In this document: positions 10,316 to 26,350 of the stretch, one piece after another
How the letters are laid out: each line of letters opens with the position of its first letter
Numbering within the stretch: the stretch's first letter is position 1
NCBI GenBank assembly: GCA_024684515.1
Contig: JAIKWS010000085.1
Location: 7,375 to 71,374 of the forward strand
Length of the DNA: 64,000 nt
Source of the DNA: Prevotella sp.
GTDB lineage: Bacteria > Bacteroidota > Bacteroidia > Bacteroidales > Bacteroidaceae
Direction of reading: 5' to 3'
Notes under the pieces: generated by a model
Database searches by the model: none
What the model saw: the letters and a program-made list of their open reading frames with translations, nothing else
What the model was told of the DNA's origin: nothing
Program-made: the position numbers and the translations under genes

Positions 10316-10384
10316 AAGTTTCTCAATTTTTATTTGTTATTACTTTTTTATTACTTAACTATAGTGCTTTTTTTCTTCATTACA

Positions 10385-12292: not shown

Positions 12293-12346
12293 GAATAGTT
12301 ATTCTTTACGACTTGATTCTTTCAAAAAATGGCGAGAGAGTGAGAG

Positions 12347-12361
12347 TAGTTATGCAACGCT
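12347..12361 (-). promoter_or_regulatory. Leader motif AGCGTTGCATAACTA shared with the pilus locus 2 leader
   Basis: 13/15 identical to AACGTCGCATAACTA at 22325-22339. It lies 54 nt upstream of the start codon, versus 58 nt in locus 2. Confidence 0.3.
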
Positions 12362-12455
12362 CAGTACACTTGTCACATCTTGTTTTGCCTTGCGGCACCT
12401 CATCGAGTTCTAGTTCGCGACCTAATATTTATGTACGCGATTCATTTTTATAATG

Positions 12456-12463
12456 CAAAGTTA
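12456..12463 (-). promoter_or_regulatory. Candidate Bacteroidetes -7 promoter box (TAACTTTG) for the pilin block
   Basis: Exact match to TAnnTTTG on the minus strand, about 165 nt upstream of the ATG at 12292. No clear -33 TTTG was seen. Confidence 0.45.
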
Positions 12464-12810
12464 GTCATTTTTATTTAATTAGCAACTATTCAGGGGAATT
12501 TTTTTTTATGTTTTTGTAAATTCTGCTACTTTTTTTGTATATTTCAACATTCTGAGACGGTTTTCACCTTATTTTTTTTACCTTTAAACATAACAATTGT
12601 GCGAACCGAACTTTTGGAAATGACCCCAAAAACCATTTGTGTGCATGAAAACCAAGTACAAAAGATTGGCTAGACACACAAATCAGAGAGAGAAAACCAG
12701 CTGCTTGAACTCTGGAAGTTGACGAAAACCAGAGCATGAGAAAGTTGAGATTTTTCTTCTGCTATCAACTCACAATCGTGGAGTTCAAAAAAAATTCTTG
12801 TAGTTGTTTT

Positions 12811-12915
12811 GCACAACACCTCATACAATCGCCGGAAATGCCCTGACACAGGATGTTTCAGACCTGGTGGGTGTTGGCCAAACACCCCATAAACACCTCA
12901 TAAACACCTCATACA
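12811..12915. repeat. Left arm of a ~105-bp imperfect inverted repeat
   Basis: Hand alignment to the reverse complement of 13333-13437 gives roughly 85% identity. The core is GAAATGCCCTG..CAGG..TTTCAG.CCTGGTGGGTGTTG.CCAAACACC followed by ACACCTCATAA-type units. Confidence 0.7.
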
Positions 12916-13028
12916 ACACCTCATAAACACCCCATAAACACCTCATACAACACCTCATAAACACCTCATACAACACCTCATAAACACCTCGTTGGCACCT
13001 CGTTGGCACTTCACAAAACACCTCGTAA
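12882..13028. repeat. Tandem array of ~13 units of 11-12 nt (ACACCTCATAA / ACACCTCATACA and variants)
   Basis: Read directly from the sequence. The units are ACACCCCATAA, ACACCTCATAA and ACACCTCATACA in alternating 11/12-nt steps, degenerating to CACCTCGTTGG at the right end. Three further units occur in inverted orientation at 13333-13372. Confidence 0.9.
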
Positions 13029-13332
13029 ACATATTACCAAAGTCACAAAAGTTACCAATTGAAACAATAAAAGATATTTACATAAGAAAAACTGTCTCCC
13101 ATCCTGTTTTTTCTCCCTAGTTAGGAAAAAATATTTCTCTCGCCTAGAAAATAGTTTTTCGTAACGAAAGAAGAAAAAACGCATCATATGAAGCAACGAA
13201 AATATTTTACAAATGAAACAAATCAAGAGATCTTTAGAATTAAATTACTTTACAAAACGAAAATAACGCAAGAACCTGTCTTTTAACGTCAATAGTTAAT
13301 GAATCATAAAATAACGGCCATAAAGGCCTTTT

Positions 13333-13437
13333 TCATGAGGTGTTATATGAGGTGTTTACGAGGTGTTTGGGCAACACCCACCAGGCCTGAAACGCCCTGT
13401 AGCAGGGCATTTCGAGGCAATTCGTATGAGATGTTGC
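13333..13437. repeat. Right arm of the ~105-bp imperfect inverted repeat
   Basis: Its reverse complement aligns with 12811-12915. It contains an internal hairpin GCCCTG-tag-CAGGGC. Confidence 0.7.
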
Positions 13438-13671
13438 TAAAAAAGAGTAGTATTTTATTTGAAAAATCATCGTTTGTTGGTAATAAAATCGGACAAAAGG
13501 TGTCGTTGTAAGAACACCCTCCCTACCCTTCCACTGAGATGAGCGAGACCACACACGGAGGGCCAAAGCACACAGCAAGATGGCACTCGGATGGTGCTCT
13601 GTAGGATGGTGCCCAGTCATAGCATCCATCCGGTGGTACACCTAAAAAAAAGAGGTAGAAGAACGTCTGAG

Positions 13672-14784
13672 CTACCACGGGTTCCTCACCCATGTATTGA
13701 CCGCCTGTCCCATGAAGCGTTTGAAGGCATTGCTGAAGGTGCGATAGCTTCGGAAGCCACTGTCGTAGGCCAGCTGCTGGGCAGAGACAGAACCGAGCTG
13801 TGGCTGTGAGATGGCCTCGCGATAGAGACGTACGAAGTGCTCGACTCGCAAACGGTTGATATAGGCATTGTAGGTGGTGCCCTGGTCGGCTAAATACTGG
13901 CTGAGATACGTGCGATTGGTTCCTATGGCACGACAGAGCTGGTCGAGGGTGAGGTCGCTATGCAGATACAACTGACGCGATTCGCAACATTCTTCTAGCA
14001 GGCTGCCTATGCCGGTAAGGGTAGAGGGTGACATAGCGGTCCTGGCCGTGGCCAACTGTCCGTCGACATCGTCTGCGGCAAGGGTGCCGTCAGCTACCAG
14101 GCTCTGCAACGATTCCACACGCCAGAGCACGATGATGACAAGGATGACAGAAATGAGCATCGAGAGATACTCTATCCACAGGGCTCCCATATTGAACAGA
14201 TAGACGATATAGAAGAGCTGGACACCTACTATCAGCACGAGATTCTTGCCCAGCTCCTTGTTCCTGAGATCCGAGAAGTTGGCTCGCAGCCAGTGCCCAT
14301 ACTGTCGCAAGGCATAGGCCATGTAGCTAAAGAAGAATAGGAACAGCAACGTGACATAGATGCTGATCAGCCACGTGAAACTGGCATCACGCATCACAAT
14401 GCCCACGACAACGGCTATCAGCACTCCTGGAGCAACCATCAGGGCTACTGGCCATAATGGACGACGACGGTCCTGCAGCATGCGGATGAGCAACGGCAGC
14501 AAGGTGAATCCCATGAAGAGGATGTCGAGTGCCTGACCAAGGGCATTGCCCAGCACCAGGTCGTCGAACGTACATCCCAGCACCACCCACCACAGATTGC
14601 TCAGTGCGAATGTCCCCACGACACCAGCTGCCCAGTAGCGTAACTCCCTGGGAGGCTGTACCGTCATCGAAAAGGCATTGCCACGTCTGAACAGCAGGTA
14701 AAGACATACCAGCACATAGAAGACGGTAACACCCCCATAGGATGCTACGAACAAGGCATCATGAAATGCTTGCAGTTCATACAT
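13672..14784 (-). CDS. Membrane-embedded AraC-family transcriptional regulator (about 7 TM segments plus a C-terminal HTH)
   Basis: 370 aa. About seven hydrophobic segments in residues 1-235. The C-terminal tail is AraC-like: LTLDQLCRAIGTNRTYLSQYL...YINRLRVEHFVRL...AYDSGFRSYRTFSNAFKRFMG. Confidence 0.75.
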   Translation of the reverse strand: MYELQAFHDALFVASYGGVTVFYVLVCLYLLFRRGNAFSMTVQPPRELRYWAAGVVGTFALSNLWWVVLGCTFDDLVLGNALGQALDILFMGFTLLPLLIRMLQDRRRPLWPVALMVAPGVLIAVVVGIVMRDASFTWLISIYVTLLFLFFFSYMAYALRQYGHWLRANFSDLRNKELGKNLVLIVGVQLFYIVYLFNMGALWIEYLSMLISVILVIIVLWRVESLQSLVADGTLAADDVDGQLATARTAMSPSTLTGIGSLLEECCESRQLYLHSDLTLDQLCRAIGTNRTYLSQYLADQGTTYNAYINRLRVEHFVRLYREAISQPQLGSVSAQQLAYDSGFRSYRTFSNAFKRFMGQAVNTWVRNPW

Positions 14785-14827
14785 ATTACGACTATTTTTC
14801 GGACTTATGCCTCGTAAGTGACTCAGT

Positions 14828-14835
14828 CAAAGCTA
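14828..14835 (-). promoter_or_regulatory. Candidate -7 box (TAGCTTTG) for the AraC-like gene
   Basis: TAnnTTTG on the minus strand, 44 nt upstream of the ATG at 14784. A second match (TACTTTTG) lies at 14887-14894. Confidence 0.4.
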
Positions 14836-15214
14836 CTTGAACCGCAAATATCTCTTTCCGCAGGCCCTTCGCATCCAATCAGCGGTCAAAAGTACGAAAA
14901 ACACACAGATAATTATCTATTACGAGAAAGAAAATAACATTAATTAACAGACAGCAAGGAGGGTCCTTCCTTTTTTTGAAAACATCGAAAGACACGAAAT
15001 ATCCGAAAACATCTCTATCTCCCAAACGATGGGATGCTGGCTTATCCCTCAACGATGTGTGATCCTGAAAAGGGGTATGAACGGGGAAAAGGGGGTGGAA
15101 TCCGTATCTGGATACAGACCTCGGGCAGCCACACGAATGGCTGCGTCATGAAACAACACTTAGTGACTTTTCAACAGTCTGCCGTCTTGCTACCCAGTGC
15201 AAGAGGCCAGACTG

Positions 15215-16843
15215 CTAACGGGTTATCTGTCTCAGGTTCTCACGGGCATCGTGATTGCCATTGTCAGCAGCCCTGCGGAAATAGGTGATGGCCTCGTCGT
15301 GGCGATCACAATACCAGAGTGCCACAGCTAGCGCATTCCAGCCACGAGGGTCGTCACGCACCTCGCTGAGCTTGGCAAGGGCTTCCTGATAGCGGCCTTC
15401 TGCCAGCAGCTGCGTGCCACTGTTGATGCTGGCGGCACGGGTGTCGGGCACATAGTCGTAGTAGATGCGCAGGTAGCCCGAGTTGCGCTGGTCGGGCAAC
15501 AGCTGTTCGCGGATATAGCGATAGGTGCTGCCGCCATCGATGGTGCGCAGCCGCTGTTCGCGACGGCTCAGGTCTGCCTCGCTGTCGATGATGGCGATGG
15601 CCTGTCGCAGGGCCTGCACCTCGCTGTCGGAGTGTGTGCCAGGAGCGATGACCACATCGTTGATCTGGTCGCGAAGCTCTGTCCAAGCCTCACCGCCATT
15701 GCAGAGCTCGTAGAGGGTGTCGGGGGTAGCCACCTGCTGCTGGATATAGGCTTTCAGGGCCTCGGCTCGCTGGGCTGCCAGCTCCTCGTTGTGGGTCACG
15801 GCACCTTCTACTGAGGCCAGTCCTATAATCTGTATGCGACACACGTTGCTGGTGCTGTCAGCCAGAATCTGACGGGTGATATCTACGATACGGTCCAGCA
15901 CGCCGGCATTGTCACGATAGTCGCTGCTCAGCTCGCTCTTGTCGAGGGGGAAATGGACATAGAGGGCTCCCTTCTCCTTGCGTAGTATGCGTGTGCGGTC
16001 GTAGGGACGGTATTGTGAGATGTGTTCCAGCACGGGGTTGTCCCGCTGCAGGATGCCTGCCTGACCAGAGAAGTCGGCCACGGGATGGATGACGAAATGG
16101 GGCTTGACAGGCTCTACAGGCTCTGCAGGCTGGATGGGCACCACGGCATACTGTGGCTGTGTAGGCTGCGGGTGCAGCACCAGGTTGAGTGCCAGCTTGG
16201 GCATGAGGAAGGGTCCTGAGAAGTCGCCAACCTTCATCCCACAGCGTCCACACCGATAGCTGTCGCCCAAGGCATAGCCCACGTCGAGGCCTGCCTCAGC
16301 CTCGATGCGCAGCCAGCGGCATAGTCGCCACGAACGGCCCACGCTGGCTCCCACAGCCACCAGGTCTCCCTGTCGCCGCTCGTCCTTGACGGCACTGTAG
16401 AGGGTGCCAATGGGGAAGTCCACATCGGCCACGTTGAAATGGCTGTACACGGCATTCACACCCCAGAACCAGGAACGGTCGGCAAAGGTGGAGTCACTCC
16501 AGTGGCGCAGCTCGGGCATGATGAGCACATGCCGCCACTTGCGGCTGGTATCGTCGCTGGTGGGCCAGGGACGATAGCCTGCCGTGAGACCGATGCTCCA
16601 CCGACGGGACAGTCGCCAGTCTACTCCAAGATTGGGGGTGAGGAAGGCATCGTAGAGCAGGTTGTTGCGCACGGCAAGGGGGAAGGTATGTCCAGGCTTG
16701 ACGATGTGCGTGGAGTCGATGCGATAGCCTGGAGGTGGCAACTGCTGCTGGGCATGCGAGGCAAGACTCATGACGATGACCAGGCAGAGCGATAGGGCTA
16801 TCCTCCTGCCGGTATGGGACTTAGTAGTGGTATTTATGCTCAT
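15215..16843 (-). CDS. DUF3575-like beta-barrel / OmpA-like outer-membrane protein with a TPR-like tail; head of pilus locus 1
   Basis: Start trimmed to MSINTTT... because a -7 box falls inside the longer ORF. Signal peptide ends ...SLASHAQ. The N-terminal region is NLLYDAFLTPNLGVDWRLSRRWSIGLTAGYRPW, followed by a Pro-rich linker. The OmpA-like motif is IIGLASVEGAVTHNEELAAQRAEALKAYI. Paralog of 22398-23651. Confidence 0.65.
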   Translation of the reverse strand: MSINTTTKSHTGRRIALSLCLVIVMSLASHAQQQLPPPGYRIDSTHIVKPGHTFPLAVRNNLLYDAFLTPNLGVDWRLSRRWSIGLTAGYRPWPTSDDTSRKWRHVLIMPELRHWSDSTFADRSWFWGVNAVYSHFNVADVDFPIGTLYSAVKDERRQGDLVAVGASVGRSWRLCRWLRIEAEAGLDVGYALGDSYRCGRCGMKVGDFSGPFLMPKLALNLVLHPQPTQPQYAVVPIQPAEPVEPVKPHFVIHPVADFSGQAGILQRDNPVLEHISQYRPYDRTRILRKEKGALYVHFPLDKSELSSDYRDNAGVLDRIVDITRQILADSTSNVCRIQIIGLASVEGAVTHNEELAAQRAEALKAYIQQQVATPDTLYELCNGGEAWTELRDQINDVVIAPGTHSDSEVQALRQAIAIIDSEADLSRREQRLRTIDGGSTYRYIREQLLPDQRNSGYLRIYYDYVPDTRAASINSGTQLLAEGRYQEALAKLSEVRDDPRGWNALAVALWYCDRHDEAITYFRRAADNGNHDARENLRQITR

Positions 16844-16863
16844 GGCGGAATGATTTGAATGGA

Positions 16864-16871
16864 CAAATATA
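16864..16871 (-). promoter_or_regulatory. Candidate -7 box (TATATTTG)
   Basis: TAnnTTTG on the minus strand, 21 nt upstream of the ATG at 16843. Confidence 0.45.
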
Positions 16872-17160
16872 CTAATAATCGCAGAACAATTGACAATTCG
16901 GAAAGGAAATATAACACAAATTAACAACTCGGGGCGGAAATGGCATGGGAAGGTAGCGGACCAACGGAAGCATCACACATTATTATATATAGGAGTCGCA
17001 CCTACTTATATGCAAGAGTCACCATGCCTGTCGCAGGCATCCACGAGCAACTAACGACAAAAACGGGGATGATGCCGCTGACTTGACGCAAATTCTGCCT
17101 TCTGTCGCAACATAATGAAAAATAAAAAGGCAAAATCGGTTCTGTGTCGCAAAAAATATG

Positions 17161-17168
17161 TAATTTTG
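17161..17168 (+). promoter_or_regulatory. Candidate -7 box (TAATTTTG)
   Basis: Lies 40 nt upstream of the ATG at 17208 and inside the longer ORF-track call (17115), which argues for the downstream start. Confidence 0.5.
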
Positions 17169-17207
17169 CAGCCGGAAAACATATTACCAATCTTAAAGAG
17201 ACAGAAG

Positions 17208-18674
17208 ATGATACAAAAGCTGACAAGTATGCTGATGGCCACAATGATGGTGTGCCTCTGCATGGGTGTCGTATCGTGCAAGGACGATGACGACGATGAG
17301 AACAACGAAAGGGAAGTAGGTGGCGAGACACAGATGAGTGACAATGCCAACGACGATGCTGCCGCATTGTTGACACTGCTGAAGTATGTATGCGAATACG
17401 AGGGTGAGAGCGTAGACCCCACCATTCTGAACCAGACCTTCGAGCCTACTATCGGCACTATTGACGACGAGTCGCAGCCCACGGTGCGCACCGTGGTGGC
17501 AGGCACACTGGCCGATGCTGATGCCATTGCCGCACGGATGCTGGGCTCGCTGGGCATCAGCAACAGCCAGCCCAACGGCTTCCAGTACAGCAACGATGCC
17601 ATCGGCACCGTGAGCTACCAGCACGCCTCGGGCAGCGAGCTCGCTACCATCACCTTCGGGGTGAAGCAGATACCGCACCTGACGAAAATTGCCTTCACGG
17701 CAACGGCCAAGGACAATGCCAGCGTCACCCCCTACTATCATGTAGGCGACGTGGTAAAGTACAAGAAGAAGCTATATATCTGCGTGTCAAGCATCGGCAC
17801 AGGAAAGCCCATCGTCACTTGGGTGCACTTCGACACCACGAATGATCTGGAAAAGAAAAAGGTAAGCACCAACACCTGCAAGTGGCTGAATACGGGTAAC
17901 GACATCTACTACGATGGCAAGATGGCTGACAGAATGGCATTGTCTGACTGGATGAAGAATATCCTGTTCAAGGACGATGTCTACACCAAGCTGAGGAACA
18001 ACCTCGAAAACAGCTTGTTCGTGTCGGAAGAAGAAATAGGGGAAGTGATGCCTTCCAGCGATAAACAGTATAAGGACCTGGTGGAGGGCTGCCTGATCAA
18101 GTCGGCCGACTCACTGGTGTGGGAAGCCTGGAAACCCGTAAAAGGGGAGACAGCCCCACGATACCTGCTCGACAGGATGAATATCGAGAAGGGTGAGACT
18201 TCGTCAAGCTGGGAGATCAAGAAGTATAATGTACGAGGACTGATGCTCTGTGACCTCATGCGCTGGAGCGGGGTCTTCTCGCACGACTACTGGGTGCCCT
18301 ACATCTGTCTGATAAAGAAGAACCAGGCTACCGCCCTGACTGATGCCCTCGATCAAACACCGGCAATGACGACACTGAGCCCTAGCCACTTCAGATGGGA
18401 AACCGACGGATACATCACCTATAAGGGCGAACAGTACAACATCTTTATCGTGGCCATCCACTGGACACACGAGGCATATACACTGCCCGACAACGCTAAT
18501 TTCAAATACTACGGACTGATTGACTTCACCAACCACATACCATACCAGAGCGAAGACTATAGCGTGCGTAACATCACCTCCAGCTGGATGTCGTTTACCG
18601 ATCCGGGCAAGGCCAAGTCGGGGGTGGAAATGGTGACCTCGCTGAACGCTAAAGAATGGGTATCAAACAAGTAG
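17208..18674 (+). CDS. Surface lipoprotein of unknown function (488 aa)
   Basis: Signal MIQKLTSMLMATMMVCLCMGVVSC followed by KDDDDDENNE, a strong acidic lipoprotein export signal. No recognisable catalytic or binding motif. Confidence 0.6.
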   Translation: MIQKLTSMLMATMMVCLCMGVVSCKDDDDDENNEREVGGETQMSDNANDDAAALLTLLKYVCEYEGESVDPTILNQTFEPTIGTIDDESQPTVRTVVAGTLADADAIAARMLGSLGISNSQPNGFQYSNDAIGTVSYQHASGSELATITFGVKQIPHLTKIAFTATAKDNASVTPYYHVGDVVKYKKKLYICVSSIGTGKPIVTWVHFDTTNDLEKKKVSTNTCKWLNTGNDIYYDGKMADRMALSDWMKNILFKDDVYTKLRNNLENSLFVSEEEIGEVMPSSDKQYKDLVEGCLIKSADSLVWEAWKPVKGETAPRYLLDRMNIEKGETSSSWEIKKYNVRGLMLCDLMRWSGVFSHDYWVPYICLIKKNQATALTDALDQTPAMTTLSPSHFRWETDGYITYKGEQYNIFIVAIHWTHEAYTLPDNANFKYYGLIDFTNHIPYQSEDYSVRNITSSWMSFTDPGKAKSGVEMVTSLNAKEWVSNK

Positions 18675-18779
18675 GAAGAGCATCATGACGATACGATGAA
18701 CGGCTGCCAGCTGCTGACAACAACGATGCTGACAGGGCATTTGCAGACCGACAGCCGCTAGCATCCCAGACAAACCGAC

Positions 18780-18813
18780 TCCCCCGGCATGCCAGAAGGC
18801 ATCTGCCGGGGGA
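18780..18813 (+). terminator. Hairpin downstream of the lipoprotein gene
   Basis: Perfect 10-bp stem TCCCCCGGCA/TGCCGGGGGA plus 4 further inner pairs, about 105 nt after the stop. The trailing T tract is weak. Confidence 0.5.
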
Positions 18814-18918
18814 TGTTGGTTATGGGGGGAACGAGCGAATCGGCACAGCACAGGCACATCATTTTTTAACGATTGCTAAATATGCAGCTGTAATTGTCGG
18901 AAAATGCCGGAAAATGAC

Positions 18919-18926
18919 TAATTTTG
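18919..18926 (+). promoter_or_regulatory. Candidate -7 box (TAATTTTG)
   Basis: Falls inside the longer ORF-track call (18914). The next in-frame ATG is at 18953. Confidence 0.5.
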
Positions 18927-18952
18927 CAACCCAGACAGAGATATCACCATAC

Positions 18953-20464
18953 ATGCCAGGACAGCAGCGGACTTTTATTGCCATCGACCTGAAGTCGTTC
19001 TATGCGTCGGTAGAGTGCGTGGACAGGGGACTGGACCCGCTGACCACCCATCTCGTCGTGGCTGACGTATCGAGGACCGAAAAGACAATATGCCTGGCGG
19101 TGACACCATCGCTGAAAGCCTATGGCATCGGTGGTCGTGCCAGACTGTTCGAAGTGGTACAGAGAGTACGCGAAGTCAACGACCAGCGGAAGAGAGCTGC
19201 CGGGTGGAGGATGGCCGGGAAATCACACAACGAACAGGAGCTCAGGGCACATCCCGAACTGGAACTCGACTATATTGCCGCACCACCACGCATGGCACAC
19301 TATATCGAGGTGAGCACCAGCATTTACAAGACCTACCTGAAATACATCGCACCGGAAGACATCCATGTGTACAGCATCGACGAGGTGTTCATGGACGTCA
19401 CCGCCTATCTGCGTTACTACAGGATGACGGCCCATGAGCTGGCGATGACGATGATACGCGACGTGCTGGCCCACACAGGCATCACGGCCACGGCAGGCAT
19501 AGGCACCAACCTCTATCTGTGCAAGGTGGCCATGGATATCATGGCCAAGAAGATGCCTCCTGACAAGGATGGCGTGCGCATAGCAGAACTCGACGAGATG
19601 TCCTACCGCCACGAGCTGTGGGACTACCGCCCACTGACAAAGTTCTGGAGAGTAGGACGGGGCACAGCAGAGAAGCTGGCCGTTTATGGCATCGACACGA
19701 TGGGCAAGCTGGCACGCATGTCGGTACAGAACGAAGGACTGCTGTACAGGCTCTTCGGAGTGAACGCAGAACTGCTCATCGACCATGCCTGGGGGTGGGA
19801 GCCCTGTACGATGGAGGCTGTGAAGGCCTACCGTCCAGAGACGAACTCCTTCAGCAGCGGACAGGTGCTGCAGGAGCCCTACGACGCACACAAGGCAAGG
19901 GTGGTAGTCAGGGAGATGGCAGAGGCCATGGCCCTCGACCTGGTGTCGAAACGACTGGTGACCGACCAGCTGGTGCTGACCGTCGGCTATGATGCGGAGA
20001 GTCTGACAAGACCAGGCATACGCGACAAGTATCATGGCGAGATCACGACCAACTACTACGGGAAGGCAGTTCCGAAACATGCCCATGCCACACACAATTT
20101 CGAAAAGCCCACATCGTCGTCACGCATCATCATGGATGCTGCTGCCGCACTCTTCGACAGCTGTGTGAACGCAGACCTGCTCATCAGACGACTGAACCTG
20201 ACCACAAACCATGTGGTGGCAGAGGCATCTGCCGGGGCACAGGAGCACGTGCCACGCCAGCTAGACCTCTTCACCGACTATGAAGCCCTGGAAAAAGAAC
20301 AGCAGGAAGAGCAGGCACGTCTCGACAAGGAACGGAGGATGCAGGAGGTACAGCTGAGAATCAAGCAACGCTTCGGGAAGAATGCCATCCTCAGGGGACT
20401 GAACTTCGAGGATGGTGCCACAGCCAGGGACCGCAACGAGCAGATAGGAGGACACAAGGCATGA
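18953..20464 (+). CDS. Y-family (translesion) DNA polymerase
   Basis: Motifs FIAIDLKSFYASVEC and YSIDEVFMDVT match the catalytic Asp/Glu motifs of DinB/UmuC-type polymerases. 503 aa from the trimmed start. Confidence 0.8.
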   Translation: MPGQQRTFIAIDLKSFYASVECVDRGLDPLTTHLVVADVSRTEKTICLAVTPSLKAYGIGGRARLFEVVQRVREVNDQRKRAAGWRMAGKSHNEQELRAHPELELDYIAAPPRMAHYIEVSTSIYKTYLKYIAPEDIHVYSIDEVFMDVTAYLRYYRMTAHELAMTMIRDVLAHTGITATAGIGTNLYLCKVAMDIMAKKMPPDKDGVRIAELDEMSYRHELWDYRPLTKFWRVGRGTAEKLAVYGIDTMGKLARMSVQNEGLLYRLFGVNAELLIDHAWGWEPCTMEAVKAYRPETNSFSSGQVLQEPYDAHKARVVVREMAEAMALDLVSKRLVTDQLVLTVGYDAESLTRPGIRDKYHGEITTNYYGKAVPKHAHATHNFEKPTSSSRIIMDAAAALFDSCVNADLLIRRLNLTTNHVVAEASAGAQEHVPRQLDLFTDYEALEKEQQEEQARLDKERRMQEVQLRIKQRFGKNAILRGLNFEDGATARDRNEQIGGHKA

Positions 20465-20658
20465 CAGACCTGTACGACGATATCATCAACCTGCCTCATC
20501 ACGAGCCTACACACCATCCGAGGATGACGATGTGGAGCCGTGCGGCACAGTTTGCACCCTTTGCAGCACTCACCGGCTACGATGACGCCATCCGCAATAC
20601 AGCCCGCCAGAACGATGAAGGAACGGACAGGGGGGATGACGAAGACGGGGATGACTGA
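20461..20658 (+). CDS. YolD-like small protein (putative accessory factor of the Y-family polymerase)
   Basis: 65 aa. ATGA stop/start overlap with the polymerase gene. The motif RAAQFAPFAALTGYDD resembles the recalled YolD-family core. The C-terminal tail is acidic. Confidence 0.5.
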   Translation: MTDLYDDIINLPHHEPTHHPRMTMWSRAAQFAPFAALTGYDDAIRNTARQNDEGTDRGDDEDGDD

Positions 20659-20827
20659 ACCATCCTGACATTCCCCCATGGTTTCACATTCCGCATGAGG
20701 TTTTACAGGGTTTTTGTCAATTCACCCGTGATGGTACATATATCCGTATGATCCGGTTCCCTTTTCCTCTCTTTTCCATGCTTTTCACCAACGGTTCTGA
20801 TGCCCTGCAGTGCATCAGGATCTCATG

Positions 20828-21562
20828 TTAGTAGGGCAATGGGAAAGGCGGCTCGGTGAGACCACCATAGCTCTTTACTGAGAATTGCAGGGCCTCATCC
20901 GTAGTATACTGCTGGTAAAATGTGCAGCGAGTGACGATACCTTGCGCTGAACAGCGGTCATGGATGACGCGTACCACAGCCCATCCCTTCATCGGGTCAG
21001 CAAACTCGTCGCCCAGCAGAGCCAGACAGCCGTCCACAGTTGTCATCTCGCGGAATGGCAGTTCACGCATTTTGAACATGACACGCGGAACGCCATTATC
21101 TTGCTGCTCTGCGGTATAGAGCCACAGCTTCTGGGCATACTTCCATTCCTCGACCTTGAGATCGGTCAGCAGGGCAGCAGTACCGTTCACCTCACCCAAC
21201 TGCAGAGAAACCGAAGGCAGCGTGCCATTGCTGACGGGAATGCCAGGCATCAGAAACGAAGCATCACTCATACGTGTCTTTTCCACATATACCACTGGCA
21301 GCTTGTTGGCCAGCGATGCGAAATTCTGGTATGTGTTCCCAGGCCCCATGAACATCGTCTCGCAGAATCGCAGCATCTTCCACAATGCCGTACTGTGACG
21401 CATCTTCTGTCGCTGAATAAACTGTGGCAGCGTATTGCTACGCTTTTCTCTCGATTCCGACACACGGCCGACCATTTTGCCATTTCGTTTATAAAACGTT
21501 ACTCCTCCAATGCGAGAATTGCCGGGGACGATCAACCCCACGTCAGCTCTTTTCTTCTTCAT
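20828..21562 (-). CDS. Hypothetical protein (244 aa), no confident family assignment
   Basis: Clean ORF with no signal peptide. The basic N-terminus GLIVPGNSRIGGVTFYKRNGKMVGRVSESREKRSNTLPQFIQRQK loosely recalls DUF6266-type N-termini; this is unverified. Confidence 0.5.
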   Translation of the reverse strand: MKKKRADVGLIVPGNSRIGGVTFYKRNGKMVGRVSESREKRSNTLPQFIQRQKMRHSTALWKMLRFCETMFMGPGNTYQNFASLANKLPVVYVEKTRMSDASFLMPGIPVSNGTLPSVSLQLGEVNGTAALLTDLKVEEWKYAQKLWLYTAEQQDNGVPRVMFKMRELPFREMTTVDGCLALLGDEFADPMKGWAVVRVIHDRCSAQGIVTRCTFYQQYTTDEALQFSVKSYGGLTEPPFPLPY

Positions 21563-21643
21563 CGTTAATGTCTCCTATTTTGTTTTGTTTACTATGTTTG
21601 ATATTTGCTTCGTTCTTAGTAACCCTTTGGCAAGTCTCAGTAA

Positions 21644-21759
21644 GCTACTTATCTCGTTCGTTGTCCGCTACTTGTCCGCTACTTGTCCGCTATTTGTCCG
21701 CTACTTGTCCGCTCCATACCGAACAAATAGCGGACAAATAGCGGACAAGTAGCGCACAC
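21644..21759. repeat. Palindromic array of 11-bp-phased repeats (TTGTCCGCTAC x5 direct, TAGCGGACAA x3 inverted)
   Basis: Direct units start at 21661, 21672, 21683, 21694 and 21705. Inverted units start at 21728, 21739 and 21750. All are on an exact 11-bp register. CATACCGAACA also recurs 44 bp apart. The array lies 82-197 bp upstream of the ATG at 21562. Confidence 0.9.
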
Positions 21760-21875
21760 ATACCGAACATCGAGCGATATTGGTCGCTCTTTAGGCGCTG
21801 GGAGTAGCCTGCCAGATGCCTGCTTATAAATTGTCTTAGTGTCATGTCCATTGTCCGAAAGCATATTATTGGGTA

Positions 21876-21883
21876 CAAAGATA
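21876..21883 (-). promoter_or_regulatory. Candidate -7 box (TATCTTTG) facing the 244-aa gene
   Basis: TAnnTTTG on the minus strand. The 11-bp array would then lie in the transcribed leader or operator region. Confidence 0.35.
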
Positions 21884-22094
21884 CGCATTTTTCTCCAGAT
21901 TCGTGCAAACAGGGCAATAGTTTTTCAATCTTGATTCAGTCTTGTATGGTCGTTGCAGGTTGTGAAGGCATGTTTCTTTCTCAGAAATGAGTTCTTTTCC
22001 CATGCATCTGATGATATGCTCACAAACGGTTTTCCAGGTTTTCCAAATGTGCGGTTGGCAAAAAAGTGCTATCTAGGAATATCAAATCGACAAA

Positions 22095-22144
22095 AATTGA
22101 CACGTAGAAATACAAAATTGACAAAAAAAACATCGGAATTGACA
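22095..22144 (+). promoter_or_regulatory. Three AATTGACA boxes at exact 21-bp spacing upstream of pilus locus 2
   Basis: Boxes at 22095, 22116 and 22137 in the context (A)AAATTGACA(A). They lie 52-100 bp upstream of the -7 box at 22196. Confidence 0.5.
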
Positions 22145-22195
22145 AAAAGTAGAACAATAAGCACCCTAAAAGGATTATAATTAAAAAAAAATAAC

Positions 22196-22203
22196 TAACT
22201 TTG
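22196..22203 (+). promoter_or_regulatory. Candidate -7 box (TAACTTTG) for pilus locus 2
   Basis: Exact TAnnTTTG about 195 nt upstream of the ATG at 22398. Confidence 0.45.
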
Positions 22204-22253
22204 TATCGTGAAAATTAAACTTCGGACAGTAAATTAGAATACGAATCTCTCCT

Positions 22254-22261
22254 TATATTTG
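22254..22261 (+). promoter_or_regulatory. Alternative -7 box (TATATTTG) for pilus locus 2
   Basis: Exact TAnnTTTG about 137 nt upstream of the ATG at 22398. Confidence 0.35.
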
Positions 22262-22324
22262 TACGTGAACAGACAATCTAAGAAGTCTCACGTAACGGAC
22301 TCGATAGATGTGGCCTTGTTGCCC

Positions 22325-22339
22325 AACGTCGCATAACTA
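22325..22339 (+). promoter_or_regulatory. Leader motif AACGTCGCATAACTA shared with the pilus locus 1 leader
   Basis: 13/15 match to the minus-strand sequence at 12347-12361, at a similar distance from the start codon. Confidence 0.3.
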
Positions 22340-22397
22340 TTTTCCGCTAAAGTATATTGGAATTTCATCATCATAAAAAACAACCATTCATGAACAA

Positions 22398-23651
22398 ATG
22401 AATATCATTATGAAGTATAAGCTCGTCTTACCTTTCATATTCTTCATGGCAGGGAGCATCAGCCCTCTCTATGCTCAACAAAGAGACAGCCTTCGCTGGA
22501 CGCTGAAAACGAATGTGCTGATGTGGGCAACTACCTCCCCCACCCTAGGTGTGGAGGCACCCCTCGGCAGTCAGTGGTCGCTCGACGTGTCTGGATCTGT
22601 GAACCCCTTCACTTTTTCCGACAACCTCAAATGGAAGCACTGGCAGGTGACCGTGGAGCCCCGCTATTGGTTCAGCAACCGCTTCGAGGGTCATTTTGTC
22701 GGTATCCATGCTGGTGGAGGCGAGTTCAACATCAGTAACATGACACTGCCCTTCGGAGGTTTCAAGAAAGACTACAGATACGAGGGATGGCATGTGCGGG
22801 GAGGCATGAGCTATGGCCACCGCTGGTCGCTAGGAGGACACTGGGGACTGGAGGCTGAGCTGGGACTGGGAATAGTCTATGCCGACTATAAGCAGTTTGA
22901 CTGTGCTATTTGTGGCGACAAGAAAGATGACAAGACAAAGCTCTTCTTCGCCCCCACGCGACTAGGCATCACAGTAGCCTACACACTGGGCAGGAGAAGC
23001 AGCAAGCCTGCAGCAGTCATGCAACTCAGAGACACTATCGTGCAGTATCGTGACCGCATCATAGAGGTTGACAAGCCCCGAAATGCTGTCGCTGCCATCG
23101 TCGTGCTGCAACAGGCATATCCTTTCCTGCGGCAGGAAGGTGACAACACGGGGCAGCAGGAGGGTGTCTCTGTGCGGTTCAGACTGGACGATGGCGAGAT
23201 AGACGCCAGCTATCAGAACAACCATCACGAGCTGGAGCGGCTGTTGCAATGCATCCGCGAGGTACAGAAAGAACAGACCGTCGAACTGTCGCGAGTCACA
23301 GTGGTTGGCTATGCCTCGCCCGAGGGTGAGCAACAGCGCAACGAACAGCTGGCAGCCAGTCGTGCGGAATCGCTCAGACAGTATATTGCCACCCATGCAC
23401 CCCTGGATAGTAGCCAGATTACAGCCACCAACGGAGGTGAGGACTGGCAGGGGCTGCGACAGCTGGTGGAGGAGAGCGACATGCGGATGAAAGACCAGGT
23501 GATTGACATTATCGACCATGCCCCAGCCGCTGAACGTAAGCAGCGTCTGCAGCAACTGGATGGTGGCCGTCCCTGGCAGAGCATCAAGGATGTGCTGTTC
23601 CCACAGTTGCGCAATGCCTGCTATATTAATGTATGGTATAAAGCAAAATAG
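22398..23651 (+). CDS. DUF3575-like beta-barrel / OmpA-like outer-membrane protein; head of pilus locus 2
   Basis: Signal ends ...SISPLYAQQ. N-terminal region WTLKTNVLMWATTSPTLGVEAPLGSQWSLDVSGSVNPF. OmpA-like motif VVGYASPEGEQQRNEQLAASRAESLRQYI. The tail LQQLDGGRPWQSIKDVLFPQLRNACYINVWY parallels 15215-16843. Confidence 0.65.
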   Translation: MNIIMKYKLVLPFIFFMAGSISPLYAQQRDSLRWTLKTNVLMWATTSPTLGVEAPLGSQWSLDVSGSVNPFTFSDNLKWKHWQVTVEPRYWFSNRFEGHFVGIHAGGGEFNISNMTLPFGGFKKDYRYEGWHVRGGMSYGHRWSLGGHWGLEAELGLGIVYADYKQFDCAICGDKKDDKTKLFFAPTRLGITVAYTLGRRSSKPAAVMQLRDTIVQYRDRIIEVDKPRNAVAAIVVLQQAYPFLRQEGDNTGQQEGVSVRFRLDDGEIDASYQNNHHELERLLQCIREVQKEQTVELSRVTVVGYASPEGEQQRNEQLAASRAESLRQYIATHAPLDSSQITATNGGEDWQGLRQLVEESDMRMKDQVIDIIDHAPAAERKQRLQQLDGGRPWQSIKDVLFPQLRNACYINVWYKAK

Positions 23652-23692
23652 ACAACAAACAATATTTTTATTTATTTAATTTTCAAACGTTT

Positions 23693-25279
23693 ATGAAAAA
23701 GTATTATTATCTGAGTATGTTGGCAGCAGCGCTGCTGGCTACTGGTCTGACGAGCTGCTCGTCGGACGACGAGAACATGCCCAACGAGGTGAAGACCTCA
23801 CGTACCTGGACACAGGTGACCATCAGCGTGCCTAACGATGTGTCGACCACGCGTGCTGCTGACGCAGAGACATCAGAGGTGTATGATACTGGTACAGAAG
23901 CCGAGTACACCGTGAAGACGGCTCACCTCTACTTCTTTATGACAAACGATGGTACCAGTGACATTACCTCACCCACCCTCACCAAGGTCATAGACCTAAG
24001 CACCTTCTCTAAGATTCAGGATTATCAGACGGGCTATGAGACCAGCACAGTGGCCAATATGGCCCAGTATCGTAGTCCTTCGACGGAGACAGAGCTGGCG
24101 GATGGTACCTATAGTGTATATGCCATCGTGAACAACACACTGGCAACGGCACTGACCGAAGGTACTTCTACGGAGGCAGACTTGAAGGCCTCACTGCTCA
24201 CTGCTCCGACATTGACAAATGGAGTCATTGGTGCTACCGTTCCCAATGGCGGTATTCCTATGACCAGTCGTACGGATAACGGTGTGCTCTGCCAGACCGG
24301 TGTTGTGGTGGCTCGTGCCAATAGCGTAGAGAGTAACCCTGTTGATATCAATCTCACCATCGAGCGTGCCTGGGCCAAGGTAGCATTGGAGGCTGCAAAA
24401 ACAGCAACAAACACCAATGAGTACAACGTGTATTATAACAACGATGCCTCGGCCTATCCTACTCCTATCGGAACAGTGAAGCTGACCAGCTATCGCTTGT
24501 ACAACCTTACTCCTACTTACAATGCCTTCCGTCAGGTGGGAACTCTTACAGCAAGCAGCGGAAGCATTACGGCAGGCACAGCTGCGTATGGTAAGATAGC
24601 AACTGCTGCTCCCTATCTGCTCACGCCTTATACAGCCAGTATGACCTATGTCAGCAATGCCGTCAATACGGCCGTAACGGGAGCTTTAGGCAAGCAGACC
24701 AGCGCTGCCGCCATGCCTACAGACGAGAGTGCTTACACCACGCTGTCCTACCTGCTGGAGAACTCGATGTATGCTGACTATCAGAAGCAGGGCTATGTGA
24801 CAGGTATCGTCTTCACGGCTCAGATTACGCCTGCTACAGTCATTGTTGCCACCTCTTCTACAACTAACGACACCTACACTCAGGGTACCAGCGATCTATA
24901 CTATCTTGACTATAAGTATTACTCTTCACTTGAAGCCATCAAATATGCCAATCCCAGCCTTGCAGCAGTCACTGCTACCGACTACGGCACTTATGGCATC
25001 AAGAAGTACGAAAAAGGAATCAGCTATTACAAGTACTGGATCAAGCATTTCGACAACAATGTTCAGGGCACCATGGGCGCTATGGAGTATGCCATCGTGC
25101 GTAACAATGTGTACAACCTGAAGGTGACGGATGTCATGCTGCCTGGTGATGAGACCGAGCTTCCCACTACCGACGAGCTGACTGAGGACGTTGAGAAGAA
25201 CACCGTCTATCTGCGTGTCGCCCTCAATATCAAGCCCTGGATTGTCCGCGACCAGAGCAGTATCGTCCTTGGTAAGTAA
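23693..25279 (+). CDS. Mfa1-family type V pilin (stalk candidate of locus 2, 528 aa)
   Basis: Lipobox LTSC plus SSDDEN and a Thr-Arg site (VSTTRA). LTIERAWAKVAL, YAIVRNNVYNLKVTDV and the C-terminal VYLRVALNIKPWIVRD resemble recalled P. gingivalis Mfa1 motifs (ERSVARAMV, VVRNNIYHIHIKSI, FMSVEVTVLPWKV). Confidence 0.7.
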   Translation: MKKYYYLSMLAAALLATGLTSCSSDDENMPNEVKTSRTWTQVTISVPNDVSTTRAADAETSEVYDTGTEAEYTVKTAHLYFFMTNDGTSDITSPTLTKVIDLSTFSKIQDYQTGYETSTVANMAQYRSPSTETELADGTYSVYAIVNNTLATALTEGTSTEADLKASLLTAPTLTNGVIGATVPNGGIPMTSRTDNGVLCQTGVVVARANSVESNPVDINLTIERAWAKVALEAAKTATNTNEYNVYYNNDASAYPTPIGTVKLTSYRLYNLTPTYNAFRQVGTLTASSGSITAGTAAYGKIATAAPYLLTPYTASMTYVSNAVNTAVTGALGKQTSAAAMPTDESAYTTLSYLLENSMYADYQKQGYVTGIVFTAQITPATVIVATSSTTNDTYTQGTSDLYYLDYKYYSSLEAIKYANPSLAAVTATDYGTYGIKKYEKGISYYKYWIKHFDNNVQGTMGAMEYAIVRNNVYNLKVTDVMLPGDETELPTTDELTEDVEKNTVYLRVALNIKPWIVRDQSSIVLGK

Positions 25280-25300
25280 CATCTGAAACAGACTCAGATA

Positions 25301-26350
25301 ATGTCAATCAAGCAATTCATAAACGGCATGGCGCTTTTACTCGCTGCAGGAACAATGGCTTCCTGCAGCTGGGTAAAAGACGACCTTGACGACTGTCCCT
25401 CCGGTGTGCGCGTACAGGTGCTGAAGGTAGAGACGGCCACTGCTGTGCAAGGTGATTTTGCCGATGAGGTGGATGGTGCTCGTATCAGCACGTTCGACGC
25501 ACAGGGGCATTATCTCGACACCTACCATATCTCGGGTAGTACCTTGAAGGAGAATGACTTCGTAGTAGAGTTGCCTATAGCGCCAGGACAATACCGGCTC
25601 ATCGTATGGACAGGGCTGGAGAGCGACGACTATGAGCTGCTGGGAACAGATGGCACGCGTGCCGACCTGAGCCCCGAGGACTTAACCATACGTCTGAAGC
25701 GTACTGCCGAGAGTAGGCAGGATGGCTATCTGCATCCGCTGTGGTATGGAGAGACCGATGTCGTCACGGTGGCCAGTACGGGGCTTACCATTATCCCTGT
25801 GGAACTGACGCGACTGAACAACACCGTGGTGGCTGTGCTCCAGGATATGAGTGGCGACCCCATCGATGCCGGTACCTATCAGTTTGAGATACAGGCTGAC
25901 AATGGTTGGATGGACTATCACAACCGTATGCTACAAGATGATATCATCCACTATGGCGCCTACCTCACGCAGACTGCCACACTTGATGCCAGTGATGTCA
26001 CTACCATTGGCGGGGAGAGTGCTGCCAGCTCACTCACCGTTGCCCGTGCCGAGCTGAACACCCTGCGACTGATGGCCGACAGAGAAGCCCGCTTCGTGGT
26101 GACGGAACGTGCCACAGGACAATGCATCCTGAACCTCAACCTGACAAAATACCTGCTGATGGTACGCGAACAGTTCGAGGGACGTGTGGGAAAGAAACTC
26201 TCCAATCAGGAATACCTAGACAGCGAGAGCCATTACAACATCATCTTCTTCCTCACCCCGAAGGGTGCCGTGGCAGAGGGGACCTATCTCCTCACAGCCC
26301 TGAGTATCAACGGGTGGATTGTCCGTCTGCAAGACAATATCGTGCTATAA
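25301..26350 (+). CDS. FimB/Mfa2-like pilus anchor candidate (349 aa)
   Basis: Lipobox MASC followed by SWVKDDLDDCP (acidic run plus a second Cys). No Thr-Arg processing motif. The C-terminal ALSINGWIVRLQD parallels the stalk C-terminus. It occupies the second position, as in the fimA-fimB and mfa1-mfa2 operons. Confidence 0.6.
   Translation: MSIKQFINGMALLLAAGTMASCSWVKDDLDDCPSGVRVQVLKVETATAVQGDFADEVDGARISTFDAQGHYLDTYHISGSTLKENDFVVELPIAPGQYRLIVWTGLESDDYELLGTDGTRADLSPEDLTIRLKRTAESRQDGYLHPLWYGETDVVTVASTGLTIIPVELTRLNNTVVAVLQDMSGDPIDAGTYQFEIQADNGWMDYHNRMLQDDIIHYGAYLTQTATLDASDVTTIGGESAASSLTVARAELNTLRLMADREARFVVTERATGQCILNLNLTKYLLMVREQFEGRVGKKLSNQEYLDSESHYNIIFFLTPKGAVAEGTYLLTALSINGWIVRLQDNIVL

Follow-up and report, generated by a model that had tools for sequence, protein, structure and literature searches.

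The 11-bp-phased palindromic array at 21661-21771 of the window, the whole 64-kb stretch of Prevotella DNA analysed here, is probably the core of a conserved cis-acting control element, forming a periodic binding platform in the predicted 5′ leader of a 244-aa gene. We assign this reading a probability of roughly 0.55. In all relatives examined, the 11-nt period, its position after the promoter and its link to one gene family are conserved; the sequence of the repeats drifts, and whole units are gained and lost. The unit under conservation, as judged from the sequences, is a promoter, a leader of 11-nt repeats and then the gene.

The array consists of five direct and five inverted units in strict phase, an arrangement that is far beyond chance and on which the sequence itself, Tandem Repeats Finder and a repeat search agree with the preliminary description. 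Tandem Repeats Finder reports one block at 21661-21713 (period 11, 4.8 copies, 95% match) and another at 21723-21762 (period 11, 3.6 copies). On the plus strand, the direct unit TTGTCCGCTA is exact at 21661, 21672, 21683 and 21694; the fifth direct copy described earlier is also in place, at 21705, with one mismatch (...GCTC). Three inverted copies had been described as well, and the unit TAGCGGACAA is indeed exact at 21728 and 21739, but the copy at 21750 (TAGCGCACAC) deviates by two mismatches. The supposed second motif, CATACCGAACA, does recur 44 bp apart, at 21715 and 21759, but is not a separate element, being a degenerate form of the inverted unit (TACCGAACAA versus TAGCGGACAA). The true layout is therefore five direct plus five inverted units, with degenerate inverted units at 21717, 21750 and 21761 in the same 11-bp phase as the rest of the array. 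The dyad centres on about 21715-21716 and not near 21721, a leftward shift of 5 bp from the earlier placement; it separates two arms of 69 nt (21643-21711 and 21720-21788) that are 81% complementary in the repeat search, the complementarity reaching past the repeats themselves. The unit 10-mer has six exact copies in the 64-kb window, all inside the array, against about 0.1 expected by arithmetic for a random 10-mer on both strands.

Read on the minus strand, which is the mRNA sense, the five inverted 11-nt units (21717-21771; two exact and three degenerate, the latter taking in both CATACCGAACA motifs) make up the 5′ arm of a predicted hairpin and the five units at 21661-21715 its 3′ arm (plus-strand TTGTCCGCTAC; sense GTAGCGGACAA five times), with the loop or dyad centre placed at 21712-21719 by both the repeat search and the fold. 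On the same strand, a promoter-side arm of type a (21772-21839), defined by the fold and by an alignment in which it is common to the genomic copies C36, C67 and C108 discussed below, pairs in the fold with a gene-side arm (21603-21660; sense CGAACGAGATAAGTAGCTTACTGAGACTTGCCAAAGGGTTACTAAGAACGAAGCAAATA) and thereby lengthens the base of the hairpin. The gene-side arm could be aligned in seven of the seven array-bearing copies of the genome. The minus strand from 21560 to 21890 folds at -122 kcal/mol, compared to -75.8 +/- 4.6 for shuffled sequences (z = -10.1). A search of positions 10000-26000 against Rfam 15 returned only two sub-threshold matches to microRNA precursors, as any long hairpin would.

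The array is preceded by a Bacteroidetes-type -7 box, TATCTTTG, on the minus strand at 21883-21876, which confirms the box assumed in the preliminary description and is the sole TAnnTTTG within 330 nt upstream of the array. The array begins 125 nt downstream of this box, from which a transcription start of the 244-aa gene at about 21866 is predicted. On the gene side, a Shine-Dalgarno-like sequence, ATAGGAGAC (AGGAG), is found at 21570-21578 on the minus strand, 7-9 nt before the ATG. Positioned between the -7 box and the AGGAG, the array therefore sits in the predicted 5′ leader of about 300 nt of the 244-aa gene. The open reading frame of this gene (20828-21562, minus strand) lies to the left of the array and is convergent with a Y-family polymerase gene; to the right, a DUF3575/OmpA-Mfa1 pilus locus occupies the plus strand. 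Domain scans of the ten neighbouring ORFs (10385-25279) found no ParM/ParA, ParR or Rep gene, in agreement with the earlier statement that no partition, replication or recognizable DNA-binding gene is adjacent. The host draft genome measures 3.37 Mb with 51% G+C, and an exact match to three units was found in only one other species of the genome collection, an uncultured rumen Prevotella.

The Bacteroidetes phylum largely dispenses with Shine-Dalgarno pairing, and the conservation of an AGGAG before the start codon is worth noting for a phylum described in this way. A GGAG is present within -22 to -4 of the start in 50 of the 65 homologous loci introduced below. At the base of the hairpin, the pairing between an anti-Shine-Dalgarno and the Shine-Dalgarno sequence (CUCCUAU with AUAGGAG) is real, but a CTCCY near the 5′ base is seen in 15 of 58 loci, and a switch of this kind was dropped as a general mechanism since it is confined to a subset.

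The strongest regularity emerges upstream of homologous genes. A scan of metagenome contigs yielded 80 further loci, and the pooled set contains 65 distinct loci with at least 450 nt of upstream sequence; the proteins of the homologous loci are 58-69% identical to that of the window. Repeats with an 11-nt period are present 150-290 nt before the ATG in all 65, bearing out the earlier assignment of the array to the leader or operator region of the 244-aa gene, and no intact gene without upstream repeats occurs among the loci examined. Across the set, lag 11 gives a mean best self-identity over 44 nt of 0.76 (minimum 0.59) and lag 22, the first multiple of 11, gives 0.68, compared to 0.40-0.45 for the remaining lags and 0.40 for shuffled sequences. 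All contigs with homologues of 64-69% identity have palindromic arrays of TTGTCC-NNTA-type 11-nt units 100-250 nt upstream, and a Prevotella contig found by pattern search and genomes of the same genus likewise have a palindromic 11-nt array upstream of the gene. The neighbourhoods of the homologues differ, ranging over restriction-modification genes, glycoside hydrolases and an NRPS cluster. Of 60 loci inspected for the TAnnTTTG box, 50 have one before the periodic region, with a median distance of 75 nt, and none has one between the repeats and the ATG; the arrays of the homologous loci are located 40-170 nt downstream of the -7 box. The pattern extends to a subfamily of 296-aa proteins only 35% identical to the 244-aa protein, whose leader has its own TATATTTG box followed by four to five AU-rich 11-nt units (TTTTACCTATN) that are unrelated in sequence. 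Furthermore, strains with otherwise identical leaders of about 300 nt differ by exactly one 11-nt unit, and the arrays therefore turn over by slippage.

Pairing between the two arms is conserved less deeply than the period. In the 244-aa subfamily, Watson-Crick pairing of the arms amounts to 70% in register compared to 24-27% when one arm is slid by 1-5 nt, and where species differ in the variable four nucleotides of the unit, both arms change together (GGTA/TACC, AGTA/TACT, GATT/AATC). However, an arm slid by 11 or 22 nt still pairs at 0.59-0.63, and in-register blocks have 7.62 of 11 positions paired versus 7.25 for out-of-register blocks. Compensatory pairing specific to individual units is thus essentially absent, and the covariation is therefore one of the motif and not of the unit; it could equally stem from a shared binding motif or from homogenization between the arms. 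In most species the pairing is loose, at about 70% Watson-Crick with 15% non-transition mismatches. The two strands are not equivalent: of 65 loci, 47 have a better fold on the sense than on the antisense strand, G.U pairs exceed A.C mismatches by 234 to 149, and the repeats are regular and direct in the 5′ arm but degenerate in the other arm at 39 of 52 loci. These asymmetries modestly favour a role at the level of RNA or of one particular strand, the loci being phylogenetically related, and a transcription-linked C-to-T bias could mimic both the G.U excess and the strand asymmetry. The RNA hairpin considered in the preliminary description is compatible with the strand preference and with the fold of the window leader. 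As a universal feature, the hairpin was rejected: the leaders of the 296-aa subfamily have no significant structure (fold z of -0.3 to -1.1), so that what is conserved most deeply is the 11-nt period behind the promoter and not the hairpin.

The protein encoded downstream belongs to an uncharacterized and patchily distributed family. A large protein collection contains 1270 homologues, none with a Pfam domain, and the 244-aa protein has no sequence-profile match in Pfam, NCBIfam, PHROG, PADLOC or the PDB, and no identical record in an exact-protein look-up. A DUF6266 identity was also rejected, as hmmscan gave no match even at E <= 10. Structural work comprised two AlphaFold models and three Foldseek searches. 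The AlphaFold (AF2) model built from an alignment spanning both subfamilies reached a pLDDT of 82, and Foldseek searches with the models gave no match in the PDB or BFVD, returning generic Ig/FN3-like sandwiches only (query-normalised TM-score, TMq, <= 0.28). Neither a recognizable nucleic-acid-binding fold, in profile and fold searches, nor a known nuclease fold, in the Foldseek searches, was matched. In the model, residues 1-44 form a disordered and very basic arm (residues 1-65 have a pI of 11.9), followed by an invariant helix (QF.QRQKMRH...LW), a predicted Ig/FN3-like beta-sandwich at residues 109-208 and short C-terminal helices that close the chain.

Members of the family occur in 6 of the 151 genomes of the genus, with up to five diverged paralogues in one genome that are alike only across the coding region. 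The paralogues of G152 are 64-72% identical, again in the coding region only, and a mobility of gene and array resembling that of an insertion sequence was rejected on these grounds. No family match was found among 72,556 plasmid records or 50,697 phage records, and no partner gene recurs across 89 loci. The 244-aa gene is an accessory, solitary gene and not an insertion sequence.

A search of the window genome for further arrays, as the preliminary description had advised, revealed copies without the gene, which that description does not mention. The genome contains seven copies of a palindromic, array-bearing element of about 230 bp (C11:36424, C36:92581, C42:29035, which is that of the window, C56:5281, C67:36604, C95:4770 and C108:9895), six of them without the gene. 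On each side, about 60 bp of arm sequence is conserved among them, with two versions of the left arm, and all seven are intergenic and beside unrelated genes, one gene-less copy lying between two convergent genes. Only the window copy has the gene and the -7 box; the six others are promoter-less, and copy C67 retains the leader through the AGGAG, the ATG and three codons. The six are best read, from their sequences, as dispersed or relic copies and not as separate operators of their neighbours. The gene-side arm is also found at three genome sites with no array or one unit: C107 and C8 have one arm running straight into the other (…CATCG followed by TTCGAG…), and C124 has a single unit between the arms. 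Junctions like those at C107 and C8 would be expected if the palindrome had been deleted between the CATCG repeats found at its base. At the ends of the copies, no convincing terminal inverted repeats were seen, and a CTAAGA(A)C motif occurs in direct orientation at the two ends. No empty site was found for the copy beside rpsO, the nearest genomes compared being only about 79% identical in rpsO and different in gene order.

In other genomes, a copy without the gene is a lone relic next to a gene that has been deleted or truncated. In G151, the leader, the Shine-Dalgarno sequence, the ATG and seven codons survive without the rest of the gene; in G163, the leader is fused to the last 29 codons of the gene; and in G079, G081 and G164, the leaders run into unrelated DNA and the gene is absent. 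Leaders thus outlive the gene and never the reverse, which counts for a gene-linked leader. Arrays of this motif class are present in 14 of the 151 genomes of the genus, and the window genome is the only one with many copies. Isolated matches to the 11-mer with at most one mismatch are not enriched in this genome (about 40, compared to about 50 expected by arithmetic). Altogether, arrays with a period of 11, 22 or 33 number 216 in the genome, 19 of them inside long open frames, and a second 11-bp repeat family has about 20 copies. Given these 216 arrays, a general mutational process may create arrays wherever they are tolerated, a consideration against the control-element reading.

In the mechanism that we propose, transcription would start some 10 nt past the -7 box (21883-21876) and run leftwards through an arm of about 70 nt. 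Next in the transcript would come five units of degenerate sequence (UUGUYCGNUAN), then a loop of 8 nt, then five complementary units that are perfect (GUAGCGGACAA) and finally the second arm, with AGGAG-N7-AUG about 100 nt further on. A-form RNA makes one turn in 11 nt, and B-DNA completes a turn in nearly the same length; ParR, PhoP and CarH are established cases of proteins reading 11-bp arrays from a single side of the helix. One protein subunit could be accommodated per helical turn, either at 11 bp per turn on an A-form RNA hairpin or, just past the promoter, along one side of the DNA helix, and we lean only slightly towards RNA as the active form. Binding would set the translation, the mRNA fate or the transcription of the 244-aa gene. 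The binder would most economically be the product of the gene itself, acting through its basic N-terminal arm and invariant helix in an autoregulatory manner, because this protein is the only conserved partner, the repeats differ between paralogues, the basic arm and invariant helix are at hand, and no intact gene is devoid of repeats. The sequences show the anatomy of the element, the conservation of its period and position, its exclusive association with the gene family and its dispersal in this genome; transcription of the array, its binding by a protein, the identity of that protein and the choice between RNA and DNA as the active form are inferred.

Several other explanations deserve consideration. 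A selfish or neutral dispersed intergenic repeat of the BrickBuilt, REP/BIME or MITE kind, implying no function for the 244-aa gene, would account for the seven array copies with conserved arms of about 60 bp beside unrelated genes, the three further sites with arms joined directly or around a single unit, the abundance of arrays of period 11, 22 or 33 with only 19 in long open frames, the second 11-bp family and the whole-unit indels between strains. However, a neutral element is not expected between promoter box and ATG in 65 of 65 loci of differing context and would not recur with another sequence in the 35%-identical subfamily. Elsewhere, moreover, the gene-less copies are lone relics and do not form amplified families, and the motif class is restricted to the minority of genus genomes given above. 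On balance, such an origin seems unlikely. REPIN-RAYT systems (REP/BIME) similarly combine palindromic intergenic repeats dispersed in a genome with one repeat-associated protein gene. RAYT is an HUH/Y1 (IS200/IS605-like) transposase homologue with REPs on both sides, whereas the 244-aa protein is without an HUH/Y1 domain, its repeats occur only 5′ of the gene and only one genome has them dispersed in many copies. The nearest counterpart in print is BrickBuilt, a minisatellite-containing MITE of Porphyromonas gingivalis (Klein et al. 2015, PMC4596501), a member of the same bacterial order. The present element resembles it in having spacer-free tandem units between a conserved 'leader' and 'tail', in being multi-copy and intergenic, and in its few hosts and variable unit number. 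This likeness is one of description: BrickBuilt has 23-nt units in one orientation and no tie to a gene family, whereas the present element has 11-nt units in two inverted blocks with hairpin potential and lies upstream of every examined member of one family. Alternatively, a trans-acting regulator from an unlinked locus, such as a winged-helix protein bound head-to-tail every 11 bp, could use the array as its DNA operator and act as a roadblock past the promoter, the hairpin then being incidental. Tandem 11-bp direct repeats are an established design of this type: CarH operators consist of tandem 11-bp direct repeats on one DNA face (PMC9304148), PhoP/GlnR recognize 11-nt direct repeat units (PMC3561978) and the ParR protein of R1 binds 11-bp repeats cooperatively, ahead of the operon that it regulates (PMC9426499). 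The regular direct repeats of the 5′ arm opposite a degenerate arm in 39 of 52 loci, and the direct repeats without significant fold in the distant 296-aa subfamily, agree with such an operator, and the strict 11-bp phase of the direct-repeat block is shared with PHO box (PhoB/PhoP) and CarH operators. The latter, however, comprise 2-4 units overlapping the -35/-10 region and are bound by known regulators as a head-to-tail protein oligomer, whereas the present element has 4-6 units plus an inverted block located 40-170 nt after the -7 box and not over it. Single 11-mers are not enriched in the genome either, and the repeats differ between species and between the close G152 paralogues, so that a single regulator encoded elsewhere would need to change along with every copy, and a linked binder fits better. 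We regard an unlinked regulator as unlikely too, and if anything slightly more so than a selfish repeat.

A further alternative, to which we give less credence again, is that the repeats are an antidote RNA against a harmful product of the gene, in a type III toxin-antitoxin-like or abortive-infection module. As in type III systems (ToxIN), an accessory gene that stands alone is directly preceded by tandem repeats, which share its strand and its predicted promoter. The gene is never seen without repeats, the repeats persist past its decay (the stubs of G151 and G163, the leaders of G079, G081 and G164, and the six orphans), its distribution is patchy, and some copies are beside restriction-modification or other defence genes. 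In ToxI-type antitoxins, however, the units are of about 34-36 nt, fold into a pseudoknot and are cut by an RNase of the ToxN fold, with a terminator between array and gene. The units here measure 11 nt and make up a hairpin, after which the sequence shows no U-tract resembling a terminator, and the protein has no PADLOC, Pfam or PHROG match to the ToxN/AbiQ, CptN or TenpN families, no similarity to any other PADLOC model and none to a known nuclease fold. In addition, the orphan copies of the window genome are promoter-less and could therefore not supply antidote RNA. Far less probable is a maintenance site of plasmid or phage type, namely a parC-like centromere or an iteron origin, which was the analogy offered in the preliminary description. 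The parC site of R1 has two blocks of five 11-bp units, a count that the present array shares, and it lies upstream of the operon of a type II partition system, as the array lies upstream of its gene. However, parC consists of direct repeats flanking the promoter on a low-copy plasmid, next to parM (an actin-like ATPase) and parR (a ribbon-helix-helix protein), whereas the blocks here are inverted, lie 125 nt past the promoter box on the chromosome and have no partition genes nearby. An iteron-type origin would need an adjacent Rep gene, and none is present among the ten ORFs near the array. The differing chromosomal contexts in every species, the absence of the family from the plasmid and phage records searched and the seven element copies in one genome speak against it as well. 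The centromere or iteron reading is accordingly not upheld, and a gene-linked control element in the leader of the 244-aa gene remains the preferred interpretation.

An extension of this control-element reading, in which we place about as little confidence as in a selfish repeat, is that the 11-nt period may be a self-recognition code: the protein would polymerize on its own leader, with one subunit per A-form turn, as an RNA-protein autoregulatory or antidote module. If true, this would amount to a logic like that of type III toxin-antitoxin systems realized with unrelated parts, and to a new module in Bacteroidota. Each paralogue would then have its own repeat 'address', and the gene-less arrays would be sinks or antidote-only relics.

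The analysis also bears on the origin of the many 11/22-bp arrays in Prevotella genomes, as one family of these is traceable here to a gene leader. For the orphan family itself, with its roughly 1,270 members in rumen and gut Prevotella, it reveals a strictly conserved and highly unusual leader whose repeats follow the pitch of a nucleic-acid helix and are usually folded back on themselves. This repeat leader offers a testable handle on the function of the family and on its control.

In the genome that holds the window (G000), some copies of the hairpin element lack the 244-aa gene and carry the type-a promoter-side arm. Their homology to the window begins at position 21839, about 27 nt 3' of the point where transcription is predicted to start. 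The promoter is absent from them, and the copy on contig C67 reaches past the ATG. Taken together, these boundaries suggest that the type-a gene-less copies correspond roughly to only the transcribed part of the leader, as delimited by the predicted start.

The type-b left arm, found in the copies on contigs C11, C56, C95, C107 and C8 of G000, contains on its opposite strand a conserved short reading frame, recognized by eye, of the form M-A/E-x-EKEIEEKKAEITKMALTWEELAKCRE... This is a 34-codon ORF in C11 and C107, and its ATG is missing in C8. Such a reading frame suggests that the type-b arm originated as the 5'-terminal part of a divergent gene. Immediately upstream of this arm in C107 lies a TACTTTTG box. 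The sites C107:859-1049 and C8:67914-68087 have the two arms of the element without any array, and C124:46321-46440 has them with a single 11-bp unit. The arm junction, at which CATCG adjoins TTCGAG, fits a deletion between CATCG direct repeats located at the base of the palindrome.

The gene itself is preceded by a Shine-Dalgarno-like motif (window 21570-21578, minus strand) that is shared by most of its family: at least 50 of the 65 homologous loci have the canonical form (A)TAGGAG(A/G) 7-9 nt 5' of the ATG. To our knowledge, initiation led by a Shine-Dalgarno sequence is mostly absent from the Bacteroidota, and the motif of this family is thus unusual for the phylum. Within one clade of the family, CUCCUAU, which is complementary to the Shine-Dalgarno-like motif, is located where the hairpin begins on its 5' side, and the 3' base of the hairpin carries a second AUAGGAGG. 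Of 58 loci, 15 have CTCCY close to the 5' base, and nine combine all three components (the Shine-Dalgarno-like motif, CUCCUAU/CTCCY and the second AUAGGAGG).

Many leaders of the family (loci L011, L063, L085, L113 and others) carry, 3' of the hairpin, a second 11-nt array that is purine-rich, for example five copies of CGAAGNNNCAC, N copies of GTATGGGAAGA or five copies of GGAGAACAATT. Arrays of three to four TGTCCTGTACT units with an 11-bp pitch occur at L116, L117 and L118 (in the genomes G163, G013 and G119 of the genus, respectively), with differing flanks and with neither an inverted arm nor an adjoining family gene. These arrays appear not to be related to the leader family, and it is clear from them that the degenerate pattern used to search for leader arrays also catches unrelated ones.

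Across the whole of G000, 216 tandem arrays with a period of 11, 22 or 33 total 20.6 kb and fall into a dozen or more sequence families; periods 11 and 22 predominate in the TRF spectrum. At least two arrays each are grouped in 36 clusters, 26 array islands lie at most 600 bp from a contig end, and only 19 of the 216 arrays are contained in long open frames. The window itself holds a second 11-bp family (about 12811-13437), in which about ten direct and three to four inverted AAACACCTCAT units form arrays (12880-13009 and 13333-13368) on either side of an AT-rich core of ~330 bp that includes TTCCCTAGTTAGGAAAA-type 22-mers. About 20 clusters in G000 resemble this element, roughly half of them showing the complete layout of convergent arrays over a length of 400-600 bp, and the AAACACCTCAT clusters look like a foldback-type dispersed element.
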